Below are positions 1,136-63,766 of a stretch of 64,000 bases of DNA, piece after piece. Origin of the DNA: Bacteroidia bacterium (GTDB taxonomy: Bacteria > Bacteroidota > Bacteroidia > UKL13-3); contig JAIOYZ010000004.1 in NCBI GenBank assembly GCA_021740845.1, positions 54,142 to 118,141 of the forward strand. Reading direction: 5' to 3'. Position 1 is the first letter of the stretch. The number at the start of each line of letters is the position of its first letter. The translations under genes and the position numbers were made by a program. A model generated the notes under the pieces. That model did not search any database and had not been told where the DNA came from. It worked only from the letters and a program-made list of their open reading frames with translations.

Positions 1136-2659
1136 ATGATGGCTTCAAAAATCTATAGCAAGTTTTTATTCTCCTTTGGCAAATTAATTTGCACTCCTTT
1201 GTTTTTTATTCTCCTTGGTATTCAACCTACGAGAGCCTCATATTTTTCGTATACTACCCCGCTTTTAGAAAGTCAGAACTATTTGGCTCGTTTGCAATTG
1301 AGTTTAGCCAATCCATTGATAGATTCTGAGATTGCCAAACATCCTGGAAATGTTGCTGGTTTTTATTTAAAACACTATTCGATATTTTATAAAGTGATGG
1401 TTTTGCAGGATAAGAAATTTCTTCCTGAATTTGAATCCATTCATTTAAAAACCCTAAAAGCCATTCAAGAACTACCAGACCAAAATCCAGAGAAATTGTT
1501 CCTAAAATCAAGCATACATTTGCAGAGTGCATTGCTAAAAGGAGCCTTCGGTGAATACCTCTCCGCCGCTTGGGATTTTCGTTCAGCCTACCAAGAAGTA
1601 AATTTAAACGAAAAGAATTTCCCTTCTTATTTAGGACACCAAAAAGAAAGAGGTGCTTTAATGGCTTTAATTGGCACCTTTCCAAGCCAATACCAATGGG
1701 TTGTAGATGTGGTTGGTTTAGAAGGCGATTTTAATAAAGGATTATCAATTTTAAAGGAGTATATAAATAAAGGTGAAAAAGAACCCTTAGTAGAAAGGCA
1801 ACAAGCAATTGTTTTTTATACCTTAATTCAATTAAATTTTGGTGTCGATAAAAAGGAGGCTTGGCATTTTTATCAACCGTTTATTACCGAATCTAAAACG
1901 AGTTTAATGCAAACCTATGTTGGTGCTTATGTGGCTGGAAGATGTGGCGAAAATGAGGTGGCTATTAAATTGTTAAAAAATAAACCACAAGAGGATAGCT
2001 ACCTTAAAGTAACTTATCTCGATTTCTTAATGGGAGAATACTTGTTGCAACAACTCGATTTTTCAGCTGCTATTTGGGTCAAAAAGTACATTGCTTTTAG
2101 TCCAACAAAAGGACAACTTAAGGAAGCATACCAAAAATTATCTTGGATTTCTTGGTTGCAAAATGACACTTCAAAATTCTTGACCTATAAAAGTATGATG
2201 GAGAAATACACCAAGGACGCAGGTTCGGAAGGAAAATTGTTGGATCAAGATTTAGCTAAGAATATTTTTCCTTCAAAGGAGCTGTTAAAAGCTCGCTTGC
2301 TTTTTGATGGAGGGTATTTTAAAGAATCCTTTGCTCAATTGAGTAAAGTAAATCCCAACATTCTTTCAAGTACCTTTCAGAAAATTGAATGGTTTTATAG
2401 AAATGGTAGGTTGTTTCAAGAGGAAAATAAGTGGGCTAGTGCCATTGATTTTTATAAGAAGTGTTTGAACCAAACTCCCACTATTAACTCATATATGGTT
2501 CCAAATGCTGCCTTGCAATTAGGTATTATTTATGAGAAACTAAATTATTTGGATTTGGCTAAAGTCTATTATTCAAAAGTTTTAACCTACAGCAATTACG
2601 ATTACGAAAGTAGTTTGAGACAAAAGGCCAAGAGCAATCTAATTAGAGTTCAAAAATAA
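1136..2659 (+). CDS. Hypothetical protein with N-terminal hydrophobic segment, helical-repeat (TPR-like) appearance
   Basis: 507-aa ORF with a hydrophobic N-terminus (LFSFGKLICTPLFFILLGI) and a helical-repeat-like C-terminal part (YYSKVL, ALQLGIIYEKL). I do not recognise a specific family. Confidence 0.55.
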   Translation: MMASKIYSKFLFSFGKLICTPLFFILLGIQPTRASYFSYTTPLLESQNYLARLQLSLANPLIDSEIAKHPGNVAGFYLKHYSIFYKVMVLQDKKFLPEFESIHLKTLKAIQELPDQNPEKLFLKSSIHLQSALLKGAFGEYLSAAWDFRSAYQEVNLNEKNFPSYLGHQKERGALMALIGTFPSQYQWVVDVVGLEGDFNKGLSILKEYINKGEKEPLVERQQAIVFYTLIQLNFGVDKKEAWHFYQPFITESKTSLMQTYVGAYVAGRCGENEVAIKLLKNKPQEDSYLKVTYLDFLMGEYLLQQLDFSAAIWVKKYIAFSPTKGQLKEAYQKLSWISWLQNDTSKFLTYKSMMEKYTKDAGSEGKLLDQDLAKNIFPSKELLKARLLFDGGYFKESFAQLSKVNPNILSSTFQKIEWFYRNGRLFQEENKWASAIDFYKKCLNQTPTINSYMVPNAALQLGIIYEKLNYLDLAKVYYSKVLTYSNYDYESSLRQKAKSNLIRVQK

Positions 2660-2823
2660 ATAGAAAAGTCTCTTAGAAATCATTATATATTTGTATTCCC
2701 ATAAATGGAAAATGATGCTTAGCTGTTGTCGTTTTAGGAAATTAAAACAGTATAAAAACATTCATTTTCAGTTGTATAGGCTTTGGACCCTTATTTGATT
2801 ATTACCTGAAACAAAAATAAACA

Positions 2824-4827
2824 ATGAAAAAATTAGCTGTATTAATTTTGATTTTTATCACCTTGGAATCTTGCAAAAAGTTAAGCAATACCTCGGTAGA
2901 AGAACCTACCCCTTCTGATAATGTTACCGACATGAATCAACTGGTGGTGCCAAAAGGGTTTAATTACAAAACCAGTGATGAAGTAGAATTTTCAATTACT
3001 TTATTAAACAACAACGATGAACCTTTAAAACATGTACGCATTGATATTATGAGTGCGGCACCTGAGGATGGTGGCATAATTTATACTACCGGAGCAACCA
3101 ATAACCAAGGGAAATTAGTTCTTAAAAAGGAGTTGCCATTAACGGTTAAAGAAGTTGTTTTGAATACAGATTATATTGGTTTGCCCAACAATGTTTTGTT
3201 GTCTATTCAAGCCCATTCAGCCGCCATTACTTTAGGAGGAAAATTGCCTCAAAAAATCAGAACAATCAATGAGAATAAATATTCTGGTCAAGCTACTTTG
3301 GGTAAAAGCACTTCACAATATTCTTATCGTTTAGGTTCATACAATTCCTCTGGGGTACCAAATTACTTAATTACTCCAAACGATGTGATAAGTTCCACCT
3401 TTTTGGATGATGTAAATGCATCGCTACCAGAAAGACAACCTGTTCCAACTTATAAGCCTCAATATCTTTCTTCATCTGTTGAGAGAAATTTAATTATTAA
3501 AGAACTATGTGATGTTTGGATTACGTTTGTTCATGAGGGAGCTGGTTACCAAAATTCGTTGTTTTATTTTGTTTATAATGTTAATAATAAACCAACATCC
3601 ATTAGTGAAGTAGATTCATTTATTGCGGTTTTTCCAAATGCATCTTATTCTGGAAGTGGAGGAGGAATGACTACTGGAAATAAAGTGAAAATTGGAAGAT
3701 TTGGTGCAGATACCGCAGTTGGTTTTGCTATTGCTGCCAATGGTTGGAATGGAACATCTGTAGGAAATGGTCTTGGATTCTATACCACAATAAAATCTAT
3801 GAATCCTGAAGTTGATGTAAATAAAAAAGAGCATGTAGTTTTATTATATGATAACCCAACCCAACGATTTTTAATTGGATTTGAAGATTTAAATCGCGGC
3901 AATGGTAGCGACGATGATTTTAACGATGTGGTGGTTTATGCAACTGTTAATCCAGTAAAGGCAATTGAAATTATAAATGTATTACCAACTACTCCTTCAG
4001 TGGATGCTGATGAGGATGGAGTAAATGATGCTTACGACGAATATCCTACCGATCCATTGCGTGCATTTAATGTGTATTATCCATCTTCTACTACTATGGC
4101 GAGTGTAGCCTTTGAAGATTTATGGCCAAGTAAAGGTGATTATGATTTAAATGATGTGGTTGTAGATTTTCAGTACCATGCAGTAACAAATGGAAATAAT
4201 GAAATTAAGGATTTGAATGCGAAATTTAAATTACGCGCCGCAGGAGGAGTATTTAAAAATGCTTTTTCAGTTGAGTTTCCATTTAATAGAACCAATGTTA
4301 CAACCAATTCTGGTAGCACAACTTTAGGTTTAGAAGCCGAAGCAACAACTGCAATTTTAAAAGTGTTCTCCAATTCAAAATCTATTATCTCTACATACAA
4401 TACACTTGAGGGAAAAGGTTATGTAGAAACAGACACTTTGTTCACAAGAATGACCCTTACCACACCTGTCTTAGCAACCATAGGTACGTTTAATCCATTT
4501 ATTTATATCGATGAATCTGGAAAGGGTAGAGGATTTGAGGTTCATTTGCCTGGAAAAACACCAACTTCTTTGGTGAATACAGCTATTTTAGGAACCAATT
4601 CGGATGCTACAAATGCTGGAACTGGAGTTTATTATAAAACCAGTGCAGGTTTGCCTTTTGCTATTTCTACACCAGAGAAATTTGATTACCCTTACGAGAA
4701 AATACAAATTATTGCTGCACATAAGAAATTTGCTGCTTGGGTTCAAAGCGGAGGAGCTAGCTTCGACGATTGGTATAAGAATTTAAGTGAATATCGCGAC
4801 AATACTAAAATTTATTCCAAGCCTTAA
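2824..4827 (+). CDS. LruC-domain (DUF4842-like) lipoprotein
   Basis: Lipoprotein signal MKKLAVLILIFITLESC. Repeated acidic motifs GSDDDFNDVVVY and GDYDLNDVVVDF are typical of DUF4114/LruC-domain proteins, as far as I recall the family. Confidence 0.65.
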   Translation: MKKLAVLILIFITLESCKKLSNTSVEEPTPSDNVTDMNQLVVPKGFNYKTSDEVEFSITLLNNNDEPLKHVRIDIMSAAPEDGGIIYTTGATNNQGKLVLKKELPLTVKEVVLNTDYIGLPNNVLLSIQAHSAAITLGGKLPQKIRTINENKYSGQATLGKSTSQYSYRLGSYNSSGVPNYLITPNDVISSTFLDDVNASLPERQPVPTYKPQYLSSSVERNLIIKELCDVWITFVHEGAGYQNSLFYFVYNVNNKPTSISEVDSFIAVFPNASYSGSGGGMTTGNKVKIGRFGADTAVGFAIAANGWNGTSVGNGLGFYTTIKSMNPEVDVNKKEHVVLLYDNPTQRFLIGFEDLNRGNGSDDDFNDVVVYATVNPVKAIEIINVLPTTPSVDADEDGVNDAYDEYPTDPLRAFNVYYPSSTTMASVAFEDLWPSKGDYDLNDVVVDFQYHAVTNGNNEIKDLNAKFKLRAAGGVFKNAFSVEFPFNRTNVTTNSGSTTLGLEAEATTAILKVFSNSKSIISTYNTLEGKGYVETDTLFTRMTLTTPVLATIGTFNPFIYIDESGKGRGFEVHLPGKTPTSLVNTAILGTNSDATNAGTGVYYKTSAGLPFAISTPEKFDYPYEKIQIIAAHKKFAAWVQSGGASFDDWYKNLSEYRDNTKIYSKP

Positions 4828-4844
4828 TTTTTATTTTTTTTCAG

Positions 4845-7804: not shown

Positions 7805-7808
7805 TTTT

Positions 7809-7818
7809 GGTTCAAACC
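7809..7818 (+). repeat. Copy of the over-represented dyad motif (core GGTTCAAACC)
   Basis: ttttGGTTCAAACCaaat. Intergenic, 5 nt after the regulator stop, with fully symmetric 7-bp arms TTTGGTT/AACCAAA. Confidence 0.8.
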
Positions 7819-7828
7819 AAATAAAAAA

Positions 7829-8729: not shown

Positions 8730-8746
8730 TTGTGCGTGTATTAATA

Positions 8747-8756
8747 GGTTCAAACC
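8747..8756 (+). repeat. Copy of the over-represented dyad motif (core GGTTCAAACC)
   Basis: ataGGTTCAAACCtac, in the short gap between the methyltransferase and rnz genes. Confidence 0.8.
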
Positions 8757-8765
8757 TACTATTGT

Positions 8766-11017: not shown

Positions 11018-11054
11018 ACAATTATAGACAAATCAAATTACAGAAACGAGAGAG

Positions 11055-19265: not shown

Positions 19266-19658
19266 ATGAAGCGCTTGATTAATTTTTCATTCCTAAGTTT
19301 ATTCTTGTTGACTAGCCTCAACATTGGAGTAAAGGTGCATTTTTGCGGGGATGGCTTCGATCATTTAGTTTGGTTTGGTTCAGAACAAGATGAAGATTCT
19401 TGCGATTGCTTTGATTTTGGCAAAACAGATTGCTGCTCGGATTTGGTAATTCAGGCTCAAGGAAATCCAGAACGAGTTACTCCAAGGTTGGTTTCAGTTC
19501 CTGATGTAAACAGTTTCAAACTTTTTTATTCTTTAAGTTTGGTTCAAACCGAACCTGTATTTACAAAGAATGCTTTTTGCTTAATTATACAAAATAAAGG
19601 TGATTGGCCGCCTACCTCCCAAAAGGAATTGAGCCAATTGCAAGTATTTAGAATTTGA
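19266..19658 (+). CDS. Small secreted Cys-rich protein (tentatively HYC_CC_PP-like)
   Basis: Signal peptide, then VHFCGD, DCCSD and DWPP motifs in that order. These resemble the H-Y-C / C-C / P-P family found next to metal-associated TonB receptors in Bacteroidota. This call is from memory and not verified. Confidence 0.5.
   Translation: MKRLINFSFLSLFLLTSLNIGVKVHFCGDGFDHLVWFGSEQDEDSCDCFDFGKTDCCSDLVIQAQGNPERVTPRLVSVPDVNSFKLFYSLSLVQTEPVFTKNAFCLIIQNKGDWPPTSQKELSQLQVFRI
19541..19550 (+). repeat. Copy of the over-represented dyad motif (core GGTTCAAACC)
   Basis: tttGGTTCAAACCgaa, inside a CDS and read as LVQTE. Confidence 0.8.
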
Positions 19659-20098: not shown

Positions 20099-22344
20099 TG
20101 CGCCACTTTTTAGTGATTTTGAGTCTTTGTTTCTGGATAGAAACTTGGGCTCAAACTCCTGCTGTACTTAAAGGTGTAGTGGTAGAGTCTACCATTAAAG
20201 GTAAAATTGAACCCATTATTGGTGCGGTAATTCATTGGCAAGGTTCTAACCATGCTGTAAGTACAAATGCCAGCGGAGTTTTTGAAATTAAGGTTGAACC
20301 GAATTCAAATCATTTAATTGTACAGGCTTTGGGTTTTGAAAATGATACCATTTTGGTAAAGGATATTAATTACTTGAAAGTACTAATGGTTAGTAAGCGC
20401 AACTTAAAAGATGTGGTGATTAGCTACGAGAAAAAGACTACAGAAGTATCTTTTATTGATCCTTGGAAAACCACCATTATGAATGAAAAGGAATTGTTTA
20501 AAGCGGCTTGCTGTAACCTTTCTGAAAGCTTTGAAACCAACCCAAGTGTGGATGTTGCTTATAGCGATGCTTTAACAGGTTCTAAGCAAATTCAAATGCT
20601 TGGTTTGGCAGGCCAATACACACAAATGAGTCAGGAACAAATGCCAGGAATTAGAGGCATTGCCACCAATTTTGGATTGAATTATACTCCTGGAACTTGG
20701 GTGAATTCTATTCAGGTAAGCAAGGGATTGGGTTCTGTTGTAAATGGTTTTGAAAGTGTTTCTGGCCAAATTAATGTGGAATTACACAAGCCTACAAGCA
20801 AAGATAAATTGTATTGGAATGGATATGCAAGTCAGGGTGGAAGGTTTGAAACCAATTTGGTATTGGCGCAACAGCCCAGCAAAATGTTTTCGCATGCTTT
20901 ATTTTTACATGGAAGCAATACGGTTTTGAGAATGGATCAAAACAAGGATGAGTATTTGGATAATCCCTTAGGCACACAAGCCAATATTTTGTATCGCATG
21001 TTTATTGATAATAAAACAGGTTTGGTTTTTCATGCTTCGGTTCAATACGTAAATGATAAAAAAACGGGTGGGCAATTTGCATTTAAGGAGAGCATGCAAG
21101 ATACCTCTAACAACACGGTTTACGGCACACAAATAGCTTCTGAAAGATTGAATGGTTTTATGAAATTGGGTTATGTATTTCCTAAAAACAAATACAAAAG
21201 TATTGGTTTGCAAGTGAGTGGTACCCAGCAAAAGTTTGATAATTTTTTTGGTAATAATTTATACAATGCCAATCAGCAAAGTGCTTATGCCAATTTAATT
21301 TATCAAGATATTATTGGCAATCCAAATCACAGGTTGCGCGCAGGTTTTAGCCAGCAATCGGATTGGGTGGATGAAAAATTGTTTAATAAACAAGCCTATC
21401 ATTTTATAAGGAATGAACAAGTAAGTGGCGCTTTTGCAGAATATACTTATAGCTATAAAGCATTATTTACAATGGTGGCAGGAACTAGAATGGATTACCA
21501 CAATTGGTTTGGGTGGAAATTTGTCCCGAGATTGCATTTACGCTATGCGCCCATTTCTTCCACAGTATTTAGAGCAGTGGCAGGTAAAGGTTGGAGAACC
21601 GCTAACCTAATTAGTGAAAATATGGGAAGCTTAGCGAGCTCAAGAATTTGGAATTTCTCCAATGCAAATACTCCAAAAACGGCATATGGATTTGTGCCAG
21701 AAGAGGCATGGAATTTTGGTTTGAACCTAAACCATGAATTTAAGTTGAATTACAGGCCCGGAAGTTTTGGTGTAGATTATTATTATACCTTGTTTACTAA
21801 ACAAGTGGTGGTAGATAGAGATTTTAATCCGCAACAGGTTTTGTTTTATGCATTGAATGGAAATTCAACTAGTAGAAGTTTACAAGTTCAATTGGATTAC
21901 CAACCCATCAGAAGGTTTGATGTTCGGTTTGCATACCGTTGGTTTGATGTGAAAACACAATACCAAGATGCCTTGCGTGCAGTTCCATTAATTGCTCAAA
22001 ATAGGTGGTTTGTAAACCTTTCTTATACCATAAAAAGCAAATGGAATTTTGATTTCACAACCAATTGGGTTGGTCAAAAGAGGTTGCCAATTACTCAGTC
22101 TAATCCAATTTATTTACAAAGGAAGGATTTTTCAAGTGACTACTGGTTGATGAATGCACAGGTGAGTAAAACGTTTAAGAATAGATTGGATATTTATTTG
22201 GGTATGGAGAATTTACTTAATTTTCAACAACCCAATGCCATTTTAGATGGACAAAATCCATTTGGAAATTACTTTGATGCCAGCATGATTTGGGGGCCTA
22301 TTTTTGGAAGAATGGTCTACGCTGGTTTTAGGTTCAAAATGTAA
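20098..22344 (+). CDS. TonB-dependent receptor (CarboxypepD_reg + plug + beta-barrel)
   Basis: The start overlaps the upstream stop (TAATG). N-terminal LKGVVVES...G..I carboxypeptidase-regulatory-like domain, plug motifs, and a C-terminal aromatic barrel end YAGFRFKM. Confidence 0.85.
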   Translation: MRHFLVILSLCFWIETWAQTPAVLKGVVVESTIKGKIEPIIGAVIHWQGSNHAVSTNASGVFEIKVEPNSNHLIVQALGFENDTILVKDINYLKVLMVSKRNLKDVVISYEKKTTEVSFIDPWKTTIMNEKELFKAACCNLSESFETNPSVDVAYSDALTGSKQIQMLGLAGQYTQMSQEQMPGIRGIATNFGLNYTPGTWVNSIQVSKGLGSVVNGFESVSGQINVELHKPTSKDKLYWNGYASQGGRFETNLVLAQQPSKMFSHALFLHGSNTVLRMDQNKDEYLDNPLGTQANILYRMFIDNKTGLVFHASVQYVNDKKTGGQFAFKESMQDTSNNTVYGTQIASERLNGFMKLGYVFPKNKYKSIGLQVSGTQQKFDNFFGNNLYNANQQSAYANLIYQDIIGNPNHRLRAGFSQQSDWVDEKLFNKQAYHFIRNEQVSGAFAEYTYSYKALFTMVAGTRMDYHNWFGWKFVPRLHLRYAPISSTVFRAVAGKGWRTANLISENMGSLASSRIWNFSNANTPKTAYGFVPEEAWNFGLNLNHEFKLNYRPGSFGVDYYYTLFTKQVVVDRDFNPQQVLFYALNGNSTSRSLQVQLDYQPIRRFDVRFAYRWFDVKTQYQDALRAVPLIAQNRWFVNLSYTIKSKWNFDFTTNWVGQKRLPITQSNPIYLQRKDFSSDYWLMNAQVSKTFKNRLDIYLGMENLLNFQQPNAILDGQNPFGNYFDASMIWGPIFGRMVYAGFRFKM

Positions 22345-22792: not shown

Positions 22793-22804
22793 TTTTTTTA
22801 TTTC

Positions 22805-22814
22805 GGTTTGAACC
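22805..22814 (-). repeat. Copy of the over-represented dyad motif (core GGTTTGAACC on + strand)
   Basis: ttcGGTTTGAACCaaa, intergenic between the dgkA and DUF523 genes. Confidence 0.8.
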
Positions 22815-22824
22815 AAAAAATGCC

Positions 22825-23448: not shown

Positions 23449-24524
23449 TGAAAGCAGAAAGTCACTATTTAATTCCCATCCTTGCAGTTATTTTTAGCTG
23501 TTTTTTTGCTTGCAAACCCAAAGAAAAGGTAGATGAAATTTTGGTTCAAACCGAATTTATAAAAGCAATTGATTTGTCTTTTTTGCCTCAAGTGAGGGCT
23601 TCTAATGTGGTGGTAAAAAACAGAGAAGGACTTGCAGAAGACATGTTATTTACCCTCAAGAAAAATGGTGTAAACACGGTTCGTTTAAGGTTATGGGTTG
23701 AACCAAGTGATGTGCATTCTGGGTTTAAAGAAGTAAAGAGTTTGGTTTCTGAGATAAAAAGTCTTGGTTTAAAAATTTGGCTAACGGTTCATTATTCAGA
23801 CACTTGGGCAGATCCGGGAGCCCAAACAAAACCTTCTGCTTGGAAGGATTTGTCGTTTGAAGTTTTAAAGGATAGTGTTTCTGTTTATACCCAAAAAATT
23901 GTAACAGAAATGGATATTGATTATTTCCAAATTGGTAATGAAATCAATAATGGAATGCTTTGGCCCGATGGTAGTTATTTGCAAGAAGCGAATCTTTTAG
24001 CATTGCTTGGTTCAGCCAGTAAAGCCTTAAGAACCCACTCACCTAAAACAAAAATTATGATTCATTATGCGGGGCAAACAGGTGCTTCTTATTTCTTTCA
24101 AAAGCTGGTGAATTTGGATTACGATATAATTGGATTATCGTATTATCCCACGTGGCATGGAAGGAATTTGGATACTTTGGAATTTCAATTGGCTGCAATT
24201 AGCAATGAATTTAAAAAGCCAATTGTTATAGCAGAAACTTCGTATCCATTTACCTTGGGTTGGAACGATTGGACGAACAATGTTTTGGGAGATACTAGTC
24301 AGTTGATTCCAGCCTATCCAGCAACACCGCAAGGGCAAAAGGATTTTCTAATTGCTTTGTTTAATATGGTAAAAATAACGCCAAATGGCTTGGGTTTTTG
24401 TTATTGGGGAGGAGAATGGATTTCTTTTAAAGGTGCCACTTCCAAAGAAGGTTCATCCTATGAAAACCAAGCCTTATGGGATTTTGAGGGCAAGGCTTTA
24501 CCAGCGATAGAAGTGTTTAAATAA
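23448..24524 (+). CDS. Arabinogalactan endo-beta-1,4-galactanase (GH53)
   Basis: VRLRLWV, HYSDTWADPG, the acid/base region GNEINNGMLW, and the nucleophile region VIAETSYP are GH53 hallmarks. Signal or lipoprotein N-terminus. Confidence 0.85.
   Translation: MKAESHYLIPILAVIFSCFFACKPKEKVDEILVQTEFIKAIDLSFLPQVRASNVVVKNREGLAEDMLFTLKKNGVNTVRLRLWVEPSDVHSGFKEVKSLVSEIKSLGLKIWLTVHYSDTWADPGAQTKPSAWKDLSFEVLKDSVSVYTQKIVTEMDIDYFQIGNEINNGMLWPDGSYLQEANLLALLGSASKALRTHSPKTKIMIHYAGQTGASYFFQKLVNLDYDIIGLSYYPTWHGRNLDTLEFQLAAISNEFKKPIVIAETSYPFTLGWNDWTNNVLGDTSQLIPAYPATPQGQKDFLIALFNMVKITPNGLGFCYWGGEWISFKGATSKEGSSYENQALWDFEGKALPAIEVFK
23543..23552 (+). repeat. Copy of the over-represented dyad motif (core GGTTCAAACC)
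   Basis: tttGGTTCAAACCgaa, inside the GH53 CDS and read as LVQTE. Confidence 0.8.
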
Positions 24525-26022: not shown

Positions 26023-26174
26023 TTATGAATAGGTTTTTATTTATGACTGCATAATAGCTTTTTATTAGAAATTTTTAAAGTAAAACAAATGAAACAGAAT
26101 CTGAAATGCCAATATTTGTCATTTTATTAGTGGTTCATCTTTATTAAATTCGAATGGTAATTAAGATTTGGCGT

Positions 26175-26184
26175 TGGTTCAAAC
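26175..26184 (+). repeat. Copy of the over-represented dyad motif (core GGTTCAAACC)
   Basis: gttGGTTCAAACCgac, intergenic upstream of the usp gene. Confidence 0.8.
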
Positions 26185-26269
26185 CGACAAATTATTATTA
26201 CTTACATACTTTATAAAAAATTAATAGTAAAGACGTAACTCGCATAAATAACCTAAAAAAATAAAGCAT

Positions 26270-40830: not shown

Positions 40831-40833
40831 ACC
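40824..40833 (-). repeat. Copy of the over-represented dyad motif (core GGTTTGAACC on + strand)
   Basis: ttcGGTTTGAACCaaa. Its TGA (40828-40830) is the wecE stop codon, and the motif fills most of the 11-nt gap to the convergent gene. Confidence 0.85.
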
Positions 40834-40841
40834 AAAGAAAA

Positions 40842-42230
40842 TTAGTTGCGAATAAATACACCAAATGTTCTTTTTTCTCCTTGTTCATTGGTGAAATTTA
40901 GAATGGTGTCTTGATGAATTAAGGTGTCGTTTTGTAAGTTGGATAAACTTAAACCGCTTTCGATTTGAAAGTACCAAGGATCGTATAAAATAACCTCACC
41001 ACTTTTGCTTTCTTTGGTATATCCAGCAAACTTCCAATTGCTTTCGTCATATACATTTCTATTGGTAAATAGAGCAAAGCTAGATTCTGCAGAAACATAG
41101 GTTTGTGTTGGGTATTTTTTTATCAGATAAGGCGCTATTGCAGATTTTATGAAAACCTGTTCTTCACTTAGCTGAGTAGATTTTTTGAAATCAATGGAAG
41201 CAGGGTTGTTTAAGAACGGAAAAATGAGAATAGCTACTAGTAAAACTATACCTAATGGTCTTTGAAAAAAGCTTGGTAATGTGTTTAGTAAATCAGAGAA
41301 TCCAATTAAAATGATAATGCCAAGTAAAGGGAATATGGTAACCAAAACTCGGTTCAAACCCATTGAATTAAAAATGCCCAAAGCCCAAAAAATAGTATGA
41401 GCTAAAACAAAGGCAACAGAAATTCCATACACTAGAAATAGTTGTTCTAAATTTATTTTAAGGTTCGGTTTGAACCAAGATTTTATTTCGAAAAAAACGC
41501 CTAGGATCAAACCGAAAAATAGGATAGGAGCAAGGCAAAAATAGAGTTGTTCTATAAAATGAAACCAAGTGCCTTTACCATAAACACTAGATGCCGTGGC
41601 GTATGGAATTTTAGTGAAAACCCATAATAAGTCTTTGTGAAAATACCAACCCGCAAATGAATAAACTACATGACCAAATAATAGCCATGGAATTAATTTG
41701 AATTTCTTTTTAAATAGCAAATAGGTTAGGATTACTAATAAAATTATCAATCCTTCTGAGCGCACAAAGGGAAGTAGCGAGCTTAAACTAATTGATAGAA
41801 TTTCTTTTTCTTCTAACCATAAATACACCCCAATTATAACTACTAGCGCCGAAAATGGTTCTGTTAAACCAGAAAGCATTACAGGGAAATAAAGTGGAGC
41901 GCATAAAACAAAAATTGGAGTAAAATACCAATAGTTTATTTCTAATTTTCTTGCCACTTGGCCTGCAAACCAAGCAGAGCTAATTGCGCATAAAACATTA
42001 AATAGTTTAATGCCTTTAAATCCAAATTGAGCAAAAGGTGATGCTATTAAACTGAAAAAAGGTTTGCCCCAATGGTCGAAAAATAAGATGGGCATTTTCC
42101 ATGAATACTTTGCAATGATGTAATGAGTAATGCTATCGCCAACATTACCCAAACCGTCTGTAAAAAGTGCAGTGAGAAGGCAAGCTATGCTTATTAAGTA
42201 AAAAAGAAATTGGGCTATTTTTTTGTCCAA
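40842..42230 (-). CDS. Polytopic integral membrane protein (possible GT-C / ArnT-PMT-like glycosyltransferase)
   Basis: 462 aa: an N-terminal multi-TM region followed by a soluble C-terminal domain of about 110 aa. Adjacent to a DPM1-like GT2. The family call is by architecture only. Confidence 0.6.
   Translation of the reverse strand: MDKKIAQFLFYLISIACLLTALFTDGLGNVGDSITHYIIAKYSWKMPILFFDHWGKPFFSLIASPFAQFGFKGIKLFNVLCAISSAWFAGQVARKLEINYWYFTPIFVLCAPLYFPVMLSGLTEPFSALVVIIGVYLWLEEKEILSISLSSLLPFVRSEGLIILLVILTYLLFKKKFKLIPWLLFGHVVYSFAGWYFHKDLLWVFTKIPYATASSVYGKGTWFHFIEQLYFCLAPILFFGLILGVFFEIKSWFKPNLKINLEQLFLVYGISVAFVLAHTIFWALGIFNSMGLNRVLVTIFPLLGIIILIGFSDLLNTLPSFFQRPLGIVLLVAILIFPFLNNPASIDFKKSTQLSEEQVFIKSAIAPYLIKKYPTQTYVSAESSFALFTNRNVYDESNWKFAGYTKESKSGEVILYDPWYFQIESGLSLSNLQNDTLIHQDTILNFTNEQGEKRTFGVFIRN
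41351..41360 (+). repeat. Copy of the over-represented dyad motif (core GGTTCAAACC)
   Basis: ctcGGTTCAAACCcat, inside a minus-strand CDS and read as GLNR. Confidence 0.8.
41467..41476 (-). repeat. Copy of the over-represented dyad motif (core GGTTTGAACC on + strand)
   Basis: ttcGGTTTGAACCaag, in the same CDS and read as WFKP. It forms an inverted pair with the copy at 41351. Confidence 0.8.
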
Positions 42231-45663: not shown

Positions 45664-47112
45664 TTAATAAAGCGGTTTTCCTAAATAAAAATCAAGTACT
45701 TTTCTTCTGAAAACCAATTCGTATTTAGCTTGTGTAAAATCGGCCTCTGCGCGAATGTAGCCGTTTTTTGTATTTAAATAATCAGCCATGTTCATGCCAC
45801 CTAAATCAAATTGTTTCTCGGCCACATCAAAAGCCTCTTTATTGGCTTCTAAATTTTCTTTGTTGGCATCAAATTTTTTAAAGGATGACTTAAAATCAAC
45901 GTAAGATTGAGAAATACTTCTGTACAAATTATTTTTGGTTTGTTTCTCATTCAGTTTGTTAGATTGAACATTGATTTTAGATTTTTGAATATTGGTGTTC
46001 ACACTCCATCCATTAAATACAGGAATACTTAGGTTCAAACCGATATTTGTACCTAAATTTCTATTGAATTGTGTATTGAAGGGCGTGGTTTGATAATCTG
46101 AATAGCCTGTTGGTACCGTGGTATAAACTGGAATTGGAGTGCCGTTATAATCTCCTGCGCCAATTAAAGATGTGGTATAATTTAAATCTCCAACACCGCT
46201 TTGACTTTGAGTTGTGTAAAAGGAATTAACTCCTCCCGATAAAGTTAACCTAGGTGATCTTGCGCCTCGGGCAACATTGTAGGATAATTCTGAACTTTTG
46301 GAGCGATTTTCGGAAGCCACAACATCTGGACTATTCTTGCTAAATTCCTCAAAAATTGCGTCGATACTCAATGGTTCGTCGGCAATTTTCAAATCTTCAA
46401 CAGGTGGAATTTCTACTTGGTAACCGCCATCAGGTTTAAGTTCTATTAATAACCACAATTCTAAATAGGCTTGCATTACCGTGTTTTGGGCATTAACTGC
46501 CACTAATTCCTCAGACGACATTTGAGCTTTTAATTGAAGGTACCTGCTTTTATTGCTGCTTCCCAAATCGTACATTTTCTTTTGCCTTTCTACTTGCGCT
46601 TTTGTTGAAGCAACTCTTGCATCGGCAGAATTTGCCAATTCAATACTTTGTAAAACACGTAAATAGGCATTGCAAACATTTAAGATTATGGTGTTTTTGG
46701 TTTGCTCCAAATCTTTTTCACTTGCCTTTAATCTGTATTGTTGAACCTTAACATTGTTCATGTTCTGAAAGCCGTTGAACAAAGGAACGCTGCTATTTAA
46801 CCCAAAAGAATTGGTTCTAAACGAAACACCCTCACGAGCAAGATTGGTTGCAGGGTTAATAGCAAAACCAGTTTGCCAATTGTTGCTAACATTACCATTT
46901 AAATTAGGTAATAAATTCATCTTGCTCTGAAAATAATCTGCCTTTGAAGCAAGTGTTGTTAACTCCTGCTGTTGCACAGTTATGTTCTTTTCTAAAGCAC
47001 GGTTAACACAGTCTTTTAGACTCCATATTTTTTGATCTTGAGCATTCACAAATGACATGCTCCAAAAACAAAGCGCTAAAATGGCGCTATTTTTTTTGAA
47101 TATTTGAACCAT
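45664..47112 (-). CDS. TolC-family outer-membrane efflux protein
   Basis: Signal peptide and two tandem OEP repeats (LSLKDCVNRALEKN..., typical of the TolC N-terminus). Confidence 0.85.
   Translation of the reverse strand: MVQIFKKNSAILALCFWSMSFVNAQDQKIWSLKDCVNRALEKNITVQQQELTTLASKADYFQSKMNLLPNLNGNVSNNWQTGFAINPATNLAREGVSFRTNSFGLNSSVPLFNGFQNMNNVKVQQYRLKASEKDLEQTKNTIILNVCNAYLRVLQSIELANSADARVASTKAQVERQKKMYDLGSSNKSRYLQLKAQMSSEELVAVNAQNTVMQAYLELWLLIELKPDGGYQVEIPPVEDLKIADEPLSIDAIFEEFSKNSPDVVASENRSKSSELSYNVARGARSPRLTLSGGVNSFYTTQSQSGVGDLNYTTSLIGAGDYNGTPIPVYTTVPTGYSDYQTTPFNTQFNRNLGTNIGLNLSIPVFNGWSVNTNIQKSKINVQSNKLNEKQTKNNLYRSISQSYVDFKSSFKKFDANKENLEANKEAFDVAEKQFDLGGMNMADYLNTKNGYIRAEADFTQAKYELVFRRKVLDFYLGKPLY
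46032..46041 (+). repeat. Copy of the over-represented dyad motif (core GGTTCAAACC)
   Basis: ttaGGTTCAAACCgat, inside the TolC CDS and read as GLNL on the minus strand. Confidence 0.8.
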
Positions 47113-47765: not shown

Positions 47766-48859
47766 TGTTTGAAATAATTTTGATTCTACTTCTTTGGCTT
47801 TTTATTTGCCTTCAATTGTTTGTATTGGCAGCAGTTTTGGCTGATAGACCGCTAACACAAAGTTTAAAAGAATTTCCCCAAGTGGTGGTTCTTGTGCCAG
47901 CTAGAAACGAAGAAAATAATATTTTAGAATGTCTACAAAGTTTGGTTCAATTAAATTATCCAAAAGAGGCTATCCAAATATGGGTAGGCGATGATAACTC
48001 CACAGATAATACTGCCCAAATCATACAGCATTTTGCATCGAAAAATTCAGGTGTTCATTATTATAAGGTGGATTCAAATTTAGGTTCAGCCAGAGCTAAA
48101 GGAAATGTTTTGGAACACTTGGTTCAAGCTACAGAAGCAAATTATATTTTTGTAACCGATGCCGATATAAAAGTTTCTCCAAATTGGGTAAGGCAGTTAC
48201 TTCCTAAATTAATTAGCCAAGAATGTGGCATAGTTAGCGGAACAACTTTGGTTCAAGGCAATACTCTTTTTAAAACCTGGCAAGGCATTGATTGGACCAT
48301 TGGAAATGGAAATTTAATTGGCTTGGATAGACTTGGAATAAAATCTACAGCAATTGGCAATAACATGGCTTTTACAAGAAATGCGTATTCAAAAACGGGT
48401 GGTTATAGCAAAATGAAATTTTCTGTTACCGAAGATTTTCAATTGTTTAAAGCTATTCGTCAAGCGGGTTTTGGTTCGTATAATTTATTGGATGCAGCTT
48501 CTTTAAATATTTCTAAGGCTCAAGAAACCATTAAAAATTTGCTTCATCAAAGAAAACGTTGGATGATTGGCGCTAGGGATTTGCCTTGGTTTTGGTTGCT
48601 TATTTTTGGTTTACAAGCCAGCTTTTATCCTGTTATTTTTATAGTATTCGGTTTGAACCAAAACCTTGCTATCACAATTTATTTAACGAAAGTGATTTTA
48701 CAAACTAGTTTTGTTTTGCTAATTCATGTTCGTTTAAAAAGAGGAATTCCTTGGCTTGGCCTTGTATCATATGAGTTTTATTCCATTTTCATTCATGTAT
48801 TAATGATTGCTTTTTATTTTATTCCTATTAAGATGAATTGGAAAGAAAGAACCTATTAA
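47765..48859 (+). CDS. Membrane-embedded processive-type GT2 glycosyltransferase (COG1215-like)
   Basis: VVVLVPARNEE, VGDDNSTDNT, VTDADI, VTEDFQL, and the Q(R/Q)xRW-type motif HQRKRW followed by TM helices. The start overlaps the deacetylase stop (ATAATG). Confidence 0.8.
   Translation: MFEIILILLLWLFICLQLFVLAAVLADRPLTQSLKEFPQVVVLVPARNEENNILECLQSLVQLNYPKEAIQIWVGDDNSTDNTAQIIQHFASKNSGVHYYKVDSNLGSARAKGNVLEHLVQATEANYIFVTDADIKVSPNWVRQLLPKLISQECGIVSGTTLVQGNTLFKTWQGIDWTIGNGNLIGLDRLGIKSTAIGNNMAFTRNAYSKTGGYSKMKFSVTEDFQLFKAIRQAGFGSYNLLDAASLNISKAQETIKNLLHQRKRWMIGARDLPWFWLLIFGLQASFYPVIFIVFGLNQNLAITIYLTKVILQTSFVLLIHVRLKRGIPWLGLVSYEFYSIFIHVLMIAFYFIPIKMNWKERTY
48650..48659 (-). repeat. Copy of the over-represented dyad motif (core GGTTTGAACC on + strand)
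   Basis: ttcGGTTTGAACCaaa, inside the GT2 CDS and read as FGLNQN. Confidence 0.8.
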
Positions 48860-48901
48860 TAGCAAAATTTTGTTTTCCATAGCATTTAAAAAGTAAAATT
48901 C

Positions 48902-48911
48902 GGTTTGAACC
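48902..48911 (-). repeat. Copy of the over-represented dyad motif (core GGTTTGAACC on + strand)
   Basis: ttcGGTTTGAACCaaa, intergenic between the GT2 and tatD genes. Confidence 0.8.
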
Positions 48912-48960
48912 AAACCCTGAATCAAACAAATTAGCCTGCAAAAAATCCTATATTTGGCCT

Positions 48961-49728: not shown

Positions 49729-50069
49729 GCTTTCCTTTTGAACCAAAGTTAGCATCTACGCTGATTTATTTCCATTTATAAAGGAATGGCTGAATAGATT
49801 TTTGGTTCAAGCCAATTCTTTTTTTTGGCATTACTTGCAAATTTTCTTTTTGTTTTGGTAAAGATTATTATGTTTGTTTAATACAAGATTTTTAGAAAAA
49901 TGAAGAAAATATTAACTGCTAGCTTACTATTTTTTGTATTCTACATTATAAATGCCCAAGGTTTTTCCTTGGTAGATTATGTAAGAGCCACTAAAGGTTT
50001 CGGTTTAATATTTTGAATTTACCTGCACTCAAATAATAATCACTTTTTACAGTCTTAATACAAATCCAT

Positions 50070-52844
50070 TTGAAGAAACAATTACTTTTATTAAGCCTAT
50101 TTGTGCTTGCATGCTTTACTTTGTTAAAAGCGCAAGAAACACAACAAATTAAAGGGACTATTAGGGATTCTAAAACGGCAGAACCCCTCATTGGTGCTAC
50201 TGTTTCGGTTAAGGGAAGTACCACTGGTGTAACCACAGATTACGAAGGATCATTCCTTCTAAAAACAAAGGAGAAATTGCCCTTAACAATTGTTGTTTCC
50301 TATATTGGTTATGTGAAAGTGGAAATTTTGGTTCAAACCGTTTCTAAATCATTTGAGATTAAGCTTAAAGAGAATACAAAAGAATTACAAGAGGTTTCTA
50401 TTAGAGATAGTAGGATTACACAAAAGCAAAAGCAAGCTCCGTTAACCATTGAAACCATGGATGCAATTGCTATTAAAGAAACTCCAGCGGCAAATTTTTA
50501 TGAAGGATTGGCCCATTTAAAAGGGGTGGATATTACAAGTGCAAGTATTGGGTTTAAGATTATTAATACTCGTGGGTTTAATAGTACTTCACCAGTAAGA
50601 AGTTTGCAATTAATTGATGGAGTGGATAACCAAGCACCGGGCTTAAATTTTTCTTTGGGTAATTTCCTTGGGGCTTCAGAATTGGATGTTCAAAAGGTAG
50701 ATTTAATTGTTGGTGCATCTGGCGCATATTATGGTCCTAATGCGTTTAATGGTGTTATTAATATGCAAACCAAGAGTCCATTTCAGTTTCCTGGATTATC
50801 GGTTCAAATGCGTTTAGGTGAAAGGCGTTTAACAGAAATGGCTATACGTTATGCCGAAGTTTTTAAGAACAAAAAGGGTGAGGAGAAATTTGCCTATAAG
50901 TTCAATGTTTTTGCCATGAGTGCCCAAGATTGGGAGGCAACTAATTACGAAAAAACGGCGCAAAGTCCTGTGGATGAAAAGAACCCTGGTGGTTACGATG
51001 CTGTAAATGTATATGGAGATGAATATTCCACCAATAGGTTCAAACAATCTGGGTTAACTTATTTGGGTTATGGTTATGCCGTAAGAAGTGGTTATAAAGA
51101 AATTGATTTGGTAGATTACCATTCTCGCAATTTGAAGTTAAATGCTGCCTTACATTATAAAGTGAAGAAAGATGTTGAATTAATTGTGAGCTCAAGTTTT
51201 GGAACAGGAACTACCGTTTACCAAGGCGATAATAGGTTTAGCCTAAAAGATATTTTGTTTAACCAAAATAAAATTGAATTAAGAAAGGAAAATAGTTTTT
51301 TCATTAGGGCTTATACCACCAAAGAAAACGCGGGCAATAGTTTTGATGCCTATGCCACAGCTTTGCTTCTGCAGAATTATGCCAAGACGGATAACAATTG
51401 GGCAAAGGATTATGCAGAAAACTGGAATGGAATTGCTTATAATACCATGATTGGCTTGAGGCCAGCCGTTAATTCTGTTCCACCTGGTATTTTATATGAA
51501 AAATATGCCAACCATTTTTTAAACAATTATTACTACGATACTTTAACTCGTTATCATGGGTTGGTAAGAGAAGTAACCGATACCAAGCCAAGCAACCAAA
51601 CAGGCGGTGTGGCTAGGTTTGAACCAGGAACCGCGAGGTTTGATTCTGCCTATAAAGAAATTATTTCTCTATCAAATCGGGAGGGTGGTTCAAGATTTAT
51701 CGATGAATCTGCTTTATACCATTTAATGGCTGAAAAGCAATTTAAGGTTAAGGAATTGGAAATAAGAATGGGAGGCAATTATAGATTATATGCTCCTTTT
51801 AGTATGGGTACTATTTTCTTAGATACCGCTGGTATGGATAGAATTTACAATAGTGAAGTGGGAGCATACCTTGGTTTAGAACATAAATTTGTAGACAATA
51901 GATTGAAAGTAAGTTTCACCAATCGATTGGATAAAAATCAAAATTTCAATCTCCTTTGGTCGCCAGCAGCATCTTTTGTTTATTCATTCTTAGAACATGT
52001 TTTCCGTTTTTCTGCTGCAAGTGCAATCCGCAACCCAACTTTATCCGACCAGTATATAAATTTAAATGTGGGTCGTGCTACTTTATTGGGCAACCTAAAT
52101 GGCTTTGATAGTTTGGTTACCATTGAGAGTATGTTGGATGCCTTTAATAATGGTAAAAGTAGATTGTCATATTTTAACGTTGCACCTATTAAACCTGAAA
52201 GAGTTAAAACACTTGAGTTTGGATATAGAGGCAATATTAATGAGAAGATATTTGTTGATTTGAGTTACTATTATAGTTGGTACAACGACTTTATTGGATA
52301 TAAAATTGGAGCGGATATCAATTGGCCAGCAAATGAAATTTTCCCTAGTAATGCTAAAGTTTATAGAGTTAGTGCTAATGCCATAGATATGGTAACCACT
52401 CAGGGTTTTACTATTGGCGTAAATTACTTTTACCAAAAATACTTAGGGTTTTCTGGAAATTATTCTTGGAATAAATTAGACCGAAATGGTTCATTAGACC
52501 CATTGATACCTGCATTTAATACTCCTGAGCACAAATATAATTTGGGAATAAATGGACGTGATATAAGCTCAAAAATTGGTGGTTTGGAAATTCAATCTTG
52601 GGGTTATGCCATCAATTGGAAATGGCAAAAAGGCTTTATGTTTGAAGGGTCACCCCAATTTACTGGTGAGGTTCCAGCTTATGGAATGCTAGATATTCAA
52701 TGGAATAAATACTTTCCTGGAGAAAAGATGACCATGAAATTGGGAGCAAGTAATGCTTTAAATAATAAGGTTATTCAGGTATACGGCGGACCAAGAGTTG
52801 GAAGGATGGCATATATTTCCTTGCTATTTGATTTTTCTAAATAA
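50070..52844 (+). CDS. TonB-dependent receptor (CarboxypepD_reg + plug + 22-strand barrel)
   Basis: Signal peptide, IKGTIRDSKTAEPLIGATVSVKG, plug motifs (IETMDAIAIKE, GFKIINTRGF), and a C-terminal barrel end. TTG start as in the track. Confidence 0.85.
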   Translation: MKKQLLLLSLFVLACFTLLKAQETQQIKGTIRDSKTAEPLIGATVSVKGSTTGVTTDYEGSFLLKTKEKLPLTIVVSYIGYVKVEILVQTVSKSFEIKLKENTKELQEVSIRDSRITQKQKQAPLTIETMDAIAIKETPAANFYEGLAHLKGVDITSASIGFKIINTRGFNSTSPVRSLQLIDGVDNQAPGLNFSLGNFLGASELDVQKVDLIVGASGAYYGPNAFNGVINMQTKSPFQFPGLSVQMRLGERRLTEMAIRYAEVFKNKKGEEKFAYKFNVFAMSAQDWEATNYEKTAQSPVDEKNPGGYDAVNVYGDEYSTNRFKQSGLTYLGYGYAVRSGYKEIDLVDYHSRNLKLNAALHYKVKKDVELIVSSSFGTGTTVYQGDNRFSLKDILFNQNKIELRKENSFFIRAYTTKENAGNSFDAYATALLLQNYAKTDNNWAKDYAENWNGIAYNTMIGLRPAVNSVPPGILYEKYANHFLNNYYYDTLTRYHGLVREVTDTKPSNQTGGVARFEPGTARFDSAYKEIISLSNREGGSRFIDESALYHLMAEKQFKVKELEIRMGGNYRLYAPFSMGTIFLDTAGMDRIYNSEVGAYLGLEHKFVDNRLKVSFTNRLDKNQNFNLLWSPAASFVYSFLEHVFRFSAASAIRNPTLSDQYINLNVGRATLLGNLNGFDSLVTIESMLDAFNNGKSRLSYFNVAPIKPERVKTLEFGYRGNINEKIFVDLSYYYSWYNDFIGYKIGADINWPANEIFPSNAKVYRVSANAIDMVTTQGFTIGVNYFYQKYLGFSGNYSWNKLDRNGSLDPLIPAFNTPEHKYNLGINGRDISSKIGGLEIQSWGYAINWKWQKGFMFEGSPQFTGEVPAYGMLDIQWNKYFPGEKMTMKLGASNALNNKVIQVYGGPRVGRMAYISLLFDFSK
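50330..50339 (+). repeat. Copy of the over-represented dyad motif (core GGTTCAAACC)
   Basis: tttGGTTCAAACCgtt, inside the TonB receptor CDS and read as LVQTV. Confidence 0.8.
51616..51625 (-). repeat. Copy of the over-represented dyad motif (core GGTTTGAACC on + strand)
   Basis: ctaGGTTTGAACCagg, inside the TonB receptor CDS and read as RFEPG. Confidence 0.8.
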
Positions 52845-61408: not shown

Positions 61409-61577
61409 GAATTCTTGTCTTTCCTTTGCGGAGTTTTATTACTCTTGCAAATTAGTAATTATTCAAATAAAAGGTTGAAAAGTTTTACCTTTATTTAAAT
61501 TGGTTTATCAACAGGTAAAAAAAATAAAAATTAGAAAAATCGGTTTGACCCAAATGAAGAATTAAGATATCTATTTT

Positions 61578-63104: not shown

Positions 63105-63124
63105 AGTAAATGTTTATGGAGGCG

Positions 63125-63132
63125 CAAAGGTA
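63125..63132 (-). promoter_or_regulatory. Candidate -7 promoter box (TAnnTTTG) for purH
   Basis: The minus strand reads tacctttgcgcc, 20 nt upstream of the purH ATG. Confidence 0.35.
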
Positions 63133-63193
63133 GGTAAGCTAACTTATAATATTGCACCCAAACCAAATAAAAATAAAAGAAAAATGCAGTGTT

Positions 63194-63766
63194 TTAGTTT
63201 TGAACCAAAATGCTTTCTACAACCAAAGGAACATGTTTTTGTTCCAACAAATGAATCTTTGCTGCGATGCTTTCTACAGTATCGGTTTCGTTTAATCCGC
63301 AGGTAAATTGAGCAATGGTTTCGCCTTCATCGTAATGGCTATTTACCCAATGAAGTGTAATGCCTGTTTCCTTTTCACCTGCCTCTTTTACGGCTTCATG
63401 CACATGGTGTCCATACATTCCCTTGCCTCCAAATTTTGGCAAAAGCGCTGGGTGAAGATTAATTATTTTATTAGGAAAATGCTCCACCATATAGTTAGGA
63501 ACTTTCCAAAGAAACCCAAGCAATGCTATTAAATCAGGTTTGAATTCATTCAATTTGCTTAAAAATTCGTCCTCATTTTTAAAGGTTTCGCGGTTAAATA
63601 CAATCACAGGTATTTGTCGTGCATTCATTTTTTCAATAACACCTGCTTTTGGGTTATTGCAAAATAAAGCCACCACTTCAACCAATGCATGATTACTGAA
63701 ATACTCGCTTACATTCTCTGCATTGCTACCACTTCCACTCGCAAAAAGGACTAATTTCTTCTTCAT
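63194..63766 (-). CDS. purN: Phosphoribosylglycinamide formyltransferase
   Basis: LVLFASGSGSNAE, NLHPALLP.FGG, and HYDEG motifs. Confidence 0.9.
   Translation of the reverse strand: MKKKLVLFASGSGSNAENVSEYFSNHALVEVVALFCNNPKAGVIEKMNARQIPVIVFNRETFKNEDEFLSKLNEFKPDLIALLGFLWKVPNYMVEHFPNKIINLHPALLPKFGGKGMYGHHVHEAVKEAGEKETGITLHWVNSHYDEGETIAQFTCGLNETDTVESIAAKIHLLEQKHVPLVVESILVQN

Follow-up and report, generated by a model that had tools for sequence, protein, structure and literature searches.

What reads a 16-base word that recurs through genes and spacers, about once every 1.5–3 kb, in an uncultured freshwater clade of Bacteroidota? The word, TTCGGTTTGAACCAAA, is considered here in a stretch of 64,000 nucleotides from a Bacteroidia bacterium (GenBank assembly GCA_021740845.1, contig JAIOYZ010000004.1, positions 54,142 to 118,141), referred to below as the window. 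A preliminary description of this DNA had offered three explanations for the motif: a signal akin to DNA uptake sequences, a dense binding site for a dimeric nucleoid or segregation protein, and the core of a decayed miniature repeat element. The motif is a real, strongly non-random, clade-wide signal at the DNA level. On sequence evidence, it is best read as a self tag resembling the DNA uptake sequences (DUS) of Neisseriaceae and the uptake signal sequences (USS) of Pasteurellaceae, and it was not described before in the literature searched. The first explanation is thus favored, the second loses support, and the third is abandoned.

The abundance of the motif far exceeds chance. Its ten-base core, GGTTCAAACC, together with the complement GGTTTGAACC, occurs 21 times in the window, against 0.14 expected from dinucleotide shuffles and 0.08–0.6 under Markov models of order 0–4 trained on the window. 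The preliminary description had claimed such an excess, and rightly, with a count of 20 that overlooked the copy at 21718 and placed at 26175 one that begins at 26176. The seven additional nine-base copies that it reported are present (six GGTTCAAACA and one GTTTGAACCA); its ten copies sharing a 14- to 16-base sequence are eight exact 16-mers and nine occurrences of the 14-mer CGGTTTGAACCAAA, and the G+C content, which it gave as about 37%, is 35%. Allowing up to two mismatches to the degenerate 16-mer yields 27 sites versus 0.64 expected, and a 24-nucleotide weight matrix finds 51 sites of at least 12 bits versus 2–11 in third-order Markov simulations. Matches to TCGGTTTGAACCAAA show a graded fall-off, numbering 8, 6, 12, and 25 at zero, one, two, and three mismatches, respectively (expected 0, 0, 0.6, and 5.9). 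Roughly 45–60 real copies, or one per 1–1.5 kb, are present in the window, and a third of them are perfect at the ten-base core.

Oriented alike, the window copies yield the asymmetric consensus TTC-GGTTTGAACC-AAA. The anatomy of the motif was derived from 346 non-redundant copies taken from the window and related genomes (at least 15 genomes) and aligned by [TC]TGAACC[AT]A alone. Just 16 positions carry information, TTCGGT[T/C]TGAACC[A/T]AA, and the content is zero on either side over the 36–42 bp aligned in each direction. TGAACC is the invariant part of the oriented 16-mer, and a mismatch tally in the window identifies TTGAACC as the least variable stretch. The dyad symmetry that had been ascribed to the whole motif holds for GGTT..AACC. 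However, the flanks (C at −4 versus A at +7) and the center are consistently asymmetric across the 346 copies, the left arm favors C where T would give perfect symmetry, and a sister dialect, GG[G/T]CTGAACC, breaks the GGTT/AACC dyad altogether. The word therefore has a single reading direction, a feature that speaks against recognition by a simple symmetric dimer.

This compactness bears directly on the proposal that the motif is the eroded core of a recently expanded miniature transposable element or an element like the repetitive extragenic palindromic (REP) sequences, for which the high copy number and the partly palindromic core would speak. The preliminary description had itself named longer conserved flanks as the mark of a mobile element, and none exist beyond 16 bp in the 346 copies or in an alignment of ±25 bp around the 21 perfect window copies. 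Because nothing outside these 16 bp carries information, the word is not embedded in a larger element, and miniature inverted-repeat transposable elements (MITEs) and REP sequences are ruled out. Furthermore, 17 of the 25 strong copies defined below lie in frame within intact conserved genes, comparison of orthologs indicates that copies arise by substitution without length change, and the RNA hairpins that the copies could form are weak (−1.6 to −6.3 kcal/mol). The mobile-element explanation is effectively refuted and can be regarded as highly improbable.

Several other candidates were considered and rejected. A functional RNA element finds no match in the window, where scans yielded no Rfam hits at the gathering score and no tRNAs; the weak hairpins and the mixed orientation of the motif relative to the upstream gene indicate that it is not a terminator or mRNA element. 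GGTTCAAACC resembles a tRNA T-loop, but an origin from a tRNA T-arm or a 23S-like sequence is contradicted by the base pairing, and the sole literature match with the 11-mer was a meganuclease target in 23S rRNA. The Bacteroidota promoter −7 box (TAnnTTTG) is matched only by the minority TAGGTTTG variants, and most copies are intragenic.

The placement of the motif points to a signal that is tolerated within genes and enriched between them. Strong copies were defined as sites scoring at least 20 bits, of which the window holds 25. Seventeen lie inside genes, and the other eight fall between genes or across a gene boundary, which amounts to 4.4-fold enrichment in a window with a coding density of 92.8%. 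The preliminary description had placed a third of all copies in the 5.5% of the window that is non-coding; the third stands, and the non-coding fraction is about 7.2%. Most of the eight lie no more than 40 bp after a stop codon, a position it had also noticed, and in one case the motif’s own TGA is the stop. The strong coding copies translate as LVQTE (7), GLNxN (5), GS[N/A/K] (4), and WFKP (1), and coding copies occupy no fewer than four combinations of frame and strand. None of the strong coding copies uses the sense frame in which TGA would be read as a codon. Because several peptides and several frames are involved, the constraint acts on the DNA and not on the peptide, in agreement with the LVQT, GLN, GSN, WFKP, and FEP readings proposed before. 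A peptide or codon artefact was rejected on this frame diversity, but a few cores (51616, encoding RFEPG, and 41351) are protein-constrained.

The orientation of the copies is mixed, with a ratio of 15:10 in the window. Over 493 kb of motif-bearing sequence, comprising the window, the related locus L202, and a subset of loci L026–L117, adjacent copies face opposite ways in 87 cases and the same way in 52. These ratios are relevant to a polar signal of the Chi or FtsK-orienting polar sequence (KOPS) type, whose reader would be a nuclease of recombination or a translocase like FtsK. In favor of such a signal, the motif is over-represented and oriented and appears to be restricted to native DNA. 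However, polar signals form long runs of one orientation, and the known ones are 5–8 bp long. The mixture within a single 64-kb stretch and the preponderance of opposite neighbors make a polar function extremely improbable, and the argument from mixed orientation already advanced in the preliminary description gains strength.

The distribution of the motif among genomes is restricted. A scan of one genome per species in 185,579 species used the exact 16-mer as seed, and the matches listed are a lower bound. Among them, metagenome-assembled genomes (MAGs) of freshwater Bacteroidota from lakes and ponds (35–39% G+C) dominate. The fragments were chosen for one exact copy, so only extra copies were counted: at least 12–14 species carry further cores, besides the seed, within the 8-kb blocks that hold it, at 0.06–0.25 per kb, and all other genomes among the matches listed contain single hits with no extra copies. 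In the motif-bearing genomes, TGAACC[AT]A occurs at 0.5–0.95 per kb versus about 0.08 expected from composition, and extra sites amount to 0.28 per kb over the 493 kb. A negative control was provided by 906 kb around rho genes of other Bacteroidota, which held two cores (0.002 per kb); this rho-based scan of JGI metagenomes reached distant Bacteroidota only, with up to 59% full-length identity. Positions 17137–38888 of the window are identical to contigs of the uncultured Bacteroidota MAG GCA_021740965.1 and to contigs of one sequencing run. The MreB homologues found all belong to MAGs, and the labels that these bear are Bacteroidia, Sphingobacteriales, or Bacteroidetes bacterium.

Syntenic loci at graded distances, fetched through TolC homologues, delimit the enrichment. 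The window is strongly enriched, and enrichment extends to L202 and L040 (TolC 77% and 76%, respectively) and in L201 (74%; ‘Bacteroidetes bacterium B1(2017)’). No enrichment was found in the syntenic sisters, whose TolC identity is 69% or less: L198 (69%), L203, L204, L205, and L207. The carriers differ in dialect. L202 and L040 use tCGG[G/T]CTGAACCAAA, and L201 uses gCTGAACCAAa, all with C in place of T before TGAACC; orthologous copies differ at exactly this T/C switch. Separately, the bare 8-mer TGAACCAA is mildly over-represented in L206 (GCA_046296495.1), L203, and L207, with 10, 5, and 6 occurrences per 21 kb, respectively, where about 1.9 per 21 kb would be expected in L206 under a third-order Markov model. 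These more distant relatives have no 16-mer and no flanks in common, and the excess may reflect a short core of ancestral origin or a weak signal that is independent of the motif.

To follow individual copies, window genes were aligned codon by codon to ten orthologous loci. The copies, in window coordinates, are as follows.

7806..7821, minus strand, 26.5 bits: intergenic between convergent genes, directly after the stop of a LytTR regulator gene.
8744..8759, minus strand, TAGGTTTGAACCTA, 17.6 bits: boundary of two co-directional genes.
19538..19553, minus strand, 24.3 bits: coding, antisense, SLVQTE.
21715..21730, plus strand, 23.9 bits: TonB-dependent receptor gene; 15 of 16 positions kept in the JAIYAT locus L084.
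22802..22817, plus strand, perfect 16-mer, 28.8 bits: intergenic, 10 bp after the stop of a diacylglycerol kinase gene.
23540..23555, minus strand, perfect 16-mer, 29.6 bits: coding, antisense, ILVQTE.
26173..26188, minus strand, 24.1 bits: divergent intergenic region.
28628..28643, plus strand, perfect 16-mer, 27.5 bits: inside rho, antisense, NLVQTE.
29063..29078, minus strand, one-off copy TCTGTTTGAACCAAG, 21.4 bits: 13 bp after the stop of an aldehyde dehydrogenase gene.
29937..29952, plus strand, perfect 16-mer, 28.1 bits: aldehyde dehydrogenase gene, antisense, ILVQTE.
32926..32941, minus strand, 24.4 bits: coding, sense, SGLNQN.
35401..35416, minus strand, 23.5 bits: PBP1a gene; not in L202 (10 of 16).
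35548..35563, minus strand, C-dialect copy TCGGGCTGAACCAAAG, 24.0 bits: PBP1a gene; 15 of 16 shared with L202.
35817..35832, minus strand, 22.0 bits: PBP1a gene; lineage-specific (L202, 11 of 16).
39191..39206, minus strand, 22.0 bits: GNAT gene; absent from relatives (7–8 of 16).
39515..39530, minus strand, 21.2 bits: GNAT gene; common to L202 and L040 (14–15 of 16).
40821..40836, plus strand, perfect 16-mer, 27.2 bits: its TGA is the stop of a DegT-family aminotransferase gene; at the same gene end in L040, decayed in L202.
41348..41363, minus strand, perfect 10-mer, weak over its full length at 17.7 bits: in a stretch conserved within a 462-aa protein; 16 of 16 also in the motif-poor L198; probably ancestral and protein-constrained.
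41464..41479, plus strand, near-perfect, 28.2 bits: coding, antisense, SWFKPN; absent from all relatives (7–10 of 16).
41501..41516, minus strand, one-off copy, 21.5 bits: 37 bp from the 41464 copy and inverted to it; lineage-specific.
46029..46044, minus strand, 25.3 bits: TolC gene; the L202 and L040 ortholog carries the C dialect TCGGTCTGAACC.
48647..48662, plus strand, perfect 16-mer, 28.9 bits: glycosyltransferase-21 (GT21) gene, FGLNQN; 5–9 of 16 in eight relatives.
48899..48914, plus strand, perfect 16-mer, 28.3 bits: intergenic, 40 bp after the GT21 stop.
49801..49816, minus strand, one-off copy, 20.8 bits: intergenic after the TatD gene.
50327..50342, minus strand, 24.5 bits: TonB-dependent receptor gene; C-dialect ortholog in L202; absent further out.
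51613..51628, plus strand, perfect 10-mer: encodes the conserved RFEPG of a TonB-dependent receptor plug; kept in motif-free relatives.
61539..61554, plus strand, one-off copy GGTTTGACCC, 20.2 bits: intergenic, 24 bp after the purH stop.
63194..63209, plus strand, one-off copy, 20.7 bits: overlaps the purN stop codon.

These copies follow three patterns of inheritance. Those at 48647, 41464, 39191, 35401, 35817, and 41501 are only 5–11/16 identical at orthologous codons, even in the closest relatives sampled, and are therefore recent, lineage-specific gains made by many substitutions with no change in length. Non-conserved top copies of this kind sit in fast-evolving genes or in variable protein segments. 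Others are shared with L202 and L040, either outright (35548, 39515, and the stop-codon copy at 40821) or with a difference exactly at the dialect position (46029 and 50327). Lastly, the weak or partial matches at 41348, 46696, 51613, and 53192 are equally conserved in motif-free outgroups. They are therefore ancestral, protein-constrained coincidences to be subtracted from the count, and as a result two of the 21 perfect 10-mers (51613–51628 and 41348–41363) are ancestral coding sequence and not gained copies.

The manner of gain also informs a comparison with HIP1, the highly iterated palindrome of cyanobacteria. A word of that kind could be driven by sequence-biased repair, nicking, or gene conversion, linked to a methyltransferase or to an activity like very short patch (VSP) repair, with no uptake involved. 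Its presence in coding and non-coding DNA, the palindromic core, conservation across the clade, and the graded mismatches are all hallmarks that the motif shares with HIP1. However, gains amount to 6–11 of 16 positions changed relative to the closest relatives sampled and are not single corrected mismatches. The specificity implied is 16 bp long, asymmetric, and about 20 bits or more, and we know of no methyltransferase or VSP-repair site that approaches such a length. A HIP1-type word is a perfect short palindrome, whereas this motif is asymmetric and 16 bp long, and no gene for a DNA methyltransferase or nicking enzyme was found in the window. This form of drive is consequently judged quite improbable.

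A different reader could be an abundant, lineage-specific chromosomal protein, such as a nucleoid-organizing factor, a segregation or occlusion protein, or a global repressor, whose hundreds to thousands of sites would be kept by selection or hitch-hiking. The partial dyad GGTT-N2-AACC with its T-rich and A-rich arms would suit such a protein, and some copies are kept at orthologous positions across species. An intergenic array of 12.5 units in a related genome offers a site every 44 bp, or about four helical turns. However, the orientation is consistent across the 346 copies and the sister dialect destroys the dyad, two-thirds of the strong copies are intragenic in either orientation, and a density of 0.3–0.9 per kb is one to two orders of magnitude above that of the site-specific systems known to us. 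In addition, the best copies turn over fast, which would not be expected of functional architectural sites. A chromosomal-protein site is therefore unlikely, without being negligible.

The array itself lies at positions 3143–3691 of locus L075 (JAWXAZ010000130.1, MAG MP5IB2.37), where 12.5 tandem units of 44 bp each carry AATTTCGGTTTGAACCAAAG. It is intergenic, between a truncated open reading frame with a cNMP-binding domain and a DNA photolyase gene, upstream of the latter. The array may have arisen as a minisatellite in which a copy became trapped, or it may be a cluster of sites that serves as a hot spot for binding or uptake.

Foreign DNA appears to be largely free of the motif. The window is otherwise ordinary Bacteroidota chromosome, with lysS, rho, typA, prfB, PBP1a, mreBCD-pbp2-rodA, and purHN, along with TonB-dependent receptors, proteins sorted by way of type IX secretion (T9SS), and a polysaccharide gene cluster. 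A 5.2-kb island of 31% G+C at 10.9–16.1 kb (10900–16100) is missing from the syntenic JAIYAT locus L084. Its genes encode a TPR protein of 657 aa, a pyrophosphatase resembling MazG, and a 736-aa fusion of a Schlafen-group-3-type helicase with an S24 (LexA-like) peptidase domain, and the insertion looks like a defense or mobile island. It holds one core 8-mer where about five would be expected, in a single island that offers little sequence. Similarly, the exact 16-mer gave only 22 single hits in 2.9 million viral contigs, again little sequence from which to judge depletion, and these hits are chance. A side observation concerns prfB (16098–17200), which carries a canonical programmed +1 frameshift site at 17100–17140 on the minus strand with an upstream Shine-Dalgarno-like element (AGGAGG TAT CTT TGA C). 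Bacteroidota mostly initiate translation without a Shine-Dalgarno lead, which makes the element worthy of mention.

We consider the chances about even that the motif is a lineage-specific DNA uptake or self-recognition sequence of the DUS/USS type. The case, drawn from the 64 kb and about 0.5 Mb of fragments of relatives, rests on sequence hallmarks: a compact oriented word of at least 20 bits, about one copy per 1.5–3 kb on both strands, placement limited by tolerance in genes with enrichment just outside them, restriction to a clade, dialects, fast turnover, and foreign DNA that appears bare. Under this proposal, the 16-bp oriented word would be recognized as double-stranded DNA by a sequence-specific, probably asymmetric, receptor of a natural-transformation apparatus. 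Fragments bearing the word would be taken up preferentially and then recombine into the chromosome, such that mutations creating or improving a copy would be over-transmitted by molecular drive and copies that damage proteins would be removed. The genome would fill to about one copy per 1.5–3 kb at tolerated sites, namely variable protein segments, permissive frames, and DNA just after stop codons, and newly acquired foreign DNA would stay bare. Shifts in receptor specificity would give rise to the T/C dialects between sister species. The pattern of accumulation is documented by the counts above; we infer that an uptake machine reads the motif and that drive by uptake made it accumulate.

A possible trace of exchange between species was also observed. 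Positions 7280–7840 of L054 and 6049–6609 of L078, which belong to genomes of two species (CAMDHZ01 and JAIYAT01), match at 97% identity along 561 bp. The segment includes a perfectly identical run that exceeds 100 bp and three equally spaced motif copies in both genomes. In other places, nucleotide identity of the window to JAIYAT and CAILJQ is only 67–79%. The segment may be a recent inter-species recombination tract.

Several observations weigh against the uptake proposal. Perfect copies are unevenly spread, with none in 1–7.8 kb or 52–64 kb of the window, where only one- and two-off copies occur. The excess of opposite-orientation neighbors (87:52) is seen at all distances, with no preferred short spacing of inverted pairs, and tandem repetition as in the 44-bp array of JAWXAZ01 is met more typically where proteins bind. 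The partial dyad GGTT..AACC sets the motif apart from DUS and USS and may point to a dimer as its binder, and cyanobacterial HIP1 displays the same hallmarks without a proven uptake role. In addition, the clade is known from MAGs only, and the closest 120 MreB relatives include no cultured member. As for the apparatus, no competence genes (ComEC, ComEA, DprA, or an outer-membrane uptake machine) were found in the window, and regular expressions for prepilin, GspE/PilB Walker A, DprA, and secretin signatures returned nothing in 522 kb of motif-bearing loci, which correspond to about 17% of one genome equivalent, a share too small for this negative to carry weight.

To our knowledge, sequence-specific DNA uptake is established in only two proteobacterial families, and no DUS-type pilin receptor is known in Bacteroidota. 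The searched literature contains no report of such a motif in Bacteroidota, as the preliminary description had stated, and matches to the motif sequence were primers or unrelated oligonucleotides only. Riemerella columbina prefers its own DNA in transformation, and a k-mer count in that organism gave only A-rich low-complexity words (PMC7965970); a discrete tag would therefore be new for Bacteroidota. That the motif marks a third, independently evolved uptake or self-recognition system, the first outside Proteobacteria, with a new kind of receptor and with dialects acting as barriers to or channels of gene flow, is a bolder proposal whose chances we place somewhat short of even.

Specific uptake is central to the debates over whether transformation serves recombination (‘bacterial sex’) or nutrition and over the upkeep of species boundaries. 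If the uptake proposal is true, uptake tags evolve repeatedly. The motif would then provide a bioinformatic marker to separate native from foreign DNA, for binning, and for host assignment in freshwater metagenomes. It would also point to an undescribed receptor that could be found by correlating gene content or protein variation with the T/C dialects. If the motif binds a chromosomal protein instead, it would be among the densest specific binding-site systems in bacteria known to us. Under either explanation, it offers a concrete handle on the biology of an uncultured clade of lake Bacteroidota.

Among known systems, parS, the Noc-binding sites (NBS), the SlmA-binding sites (SBS), and the MatP sites matS are comparable as 13- to 16-bp chromosomal sites with dyad character. 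Such sites number tens per genome and are regionally clustered, whereas the motif is oriented and occurs at about 0.3–0.9 per kb in every sampled block of at least 12 species. REP sequences, bacterial interspersed mosaic elements (BIMEs), and MITEs share its high copy number and imperfect palindrome. However, they are extragenic, 20–40 bp or longer, form stable hairpins, and are mobilized as units, whereas the motif is mostly intragenic, 16 bp long, weak in hairpin potential, and arises by point substitution. HIP1 (GCGATCGC) is likewise highly iterated, clade-wide, palindromic in element, and present in genes and spacers; its function is still debated (bioRxiv 10.64898/2026.06.24.733823). Unlike the motif, which is a 16-bp oriented word whose dyad is lost between dialects, HIP1 is a perfect 8-bp palindrome and a methyltransferase site.

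The uptake sequences are the closest parallel. In Neisseriaceae, the DUS is a 10- to 12-mer, AT-GCCGTCTGAA, for which the minor pilin ComP is the receptor. The heptamer GTCTGAA is common to GCCGTCTGAA and the C dialect CGGTCTGAACC (L202, 4675–4698 and 14375–14398; L040, 3509 and 6819), an overlap that is almost certainly a coincidence. Among systems known to us, the combination of features seen in the motif is that of the DUS and USS (PMC2817400; PMC1939737; PMC3630211; PMC7371117; PMC1626085). The Pasteurellaceae USS, with the core AAGTGCGGT or ACAAGCGGT, is unrelated in sequence and has helically phased AT-rich flanks, whereas the information in the motif is zero outside 16 bp. Like the motif, the USS is abundant in coding DNA, where it occupies tolerated frames and less conserved protein segments, and it has subclade variants and graded mismatched copies consistent with mutation and drive (PMC2817400; PMC1626085; PMC3458573). 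The DUS is also unrelated in sequence and phylum; it is read through type IV pili and ComP, whereas the motif is known here from its sequence. DUS inverted pairs form terminators, whereas the intergenic copies of the motif are single and its core is partly dyad-symmetric. The density of the DUS, roughly 0.3–1 copy per kb on both strands without polarity, is similar to that of the motif. The DUS also resembles it as a compact oriented word without extended flanks, found in genes and enriched intergenically near gene ends, and distributed family-wide with single-base dialects; it is depleted in foreign DNA, as the motif appears to be (PMC3630211; PMC7371117).

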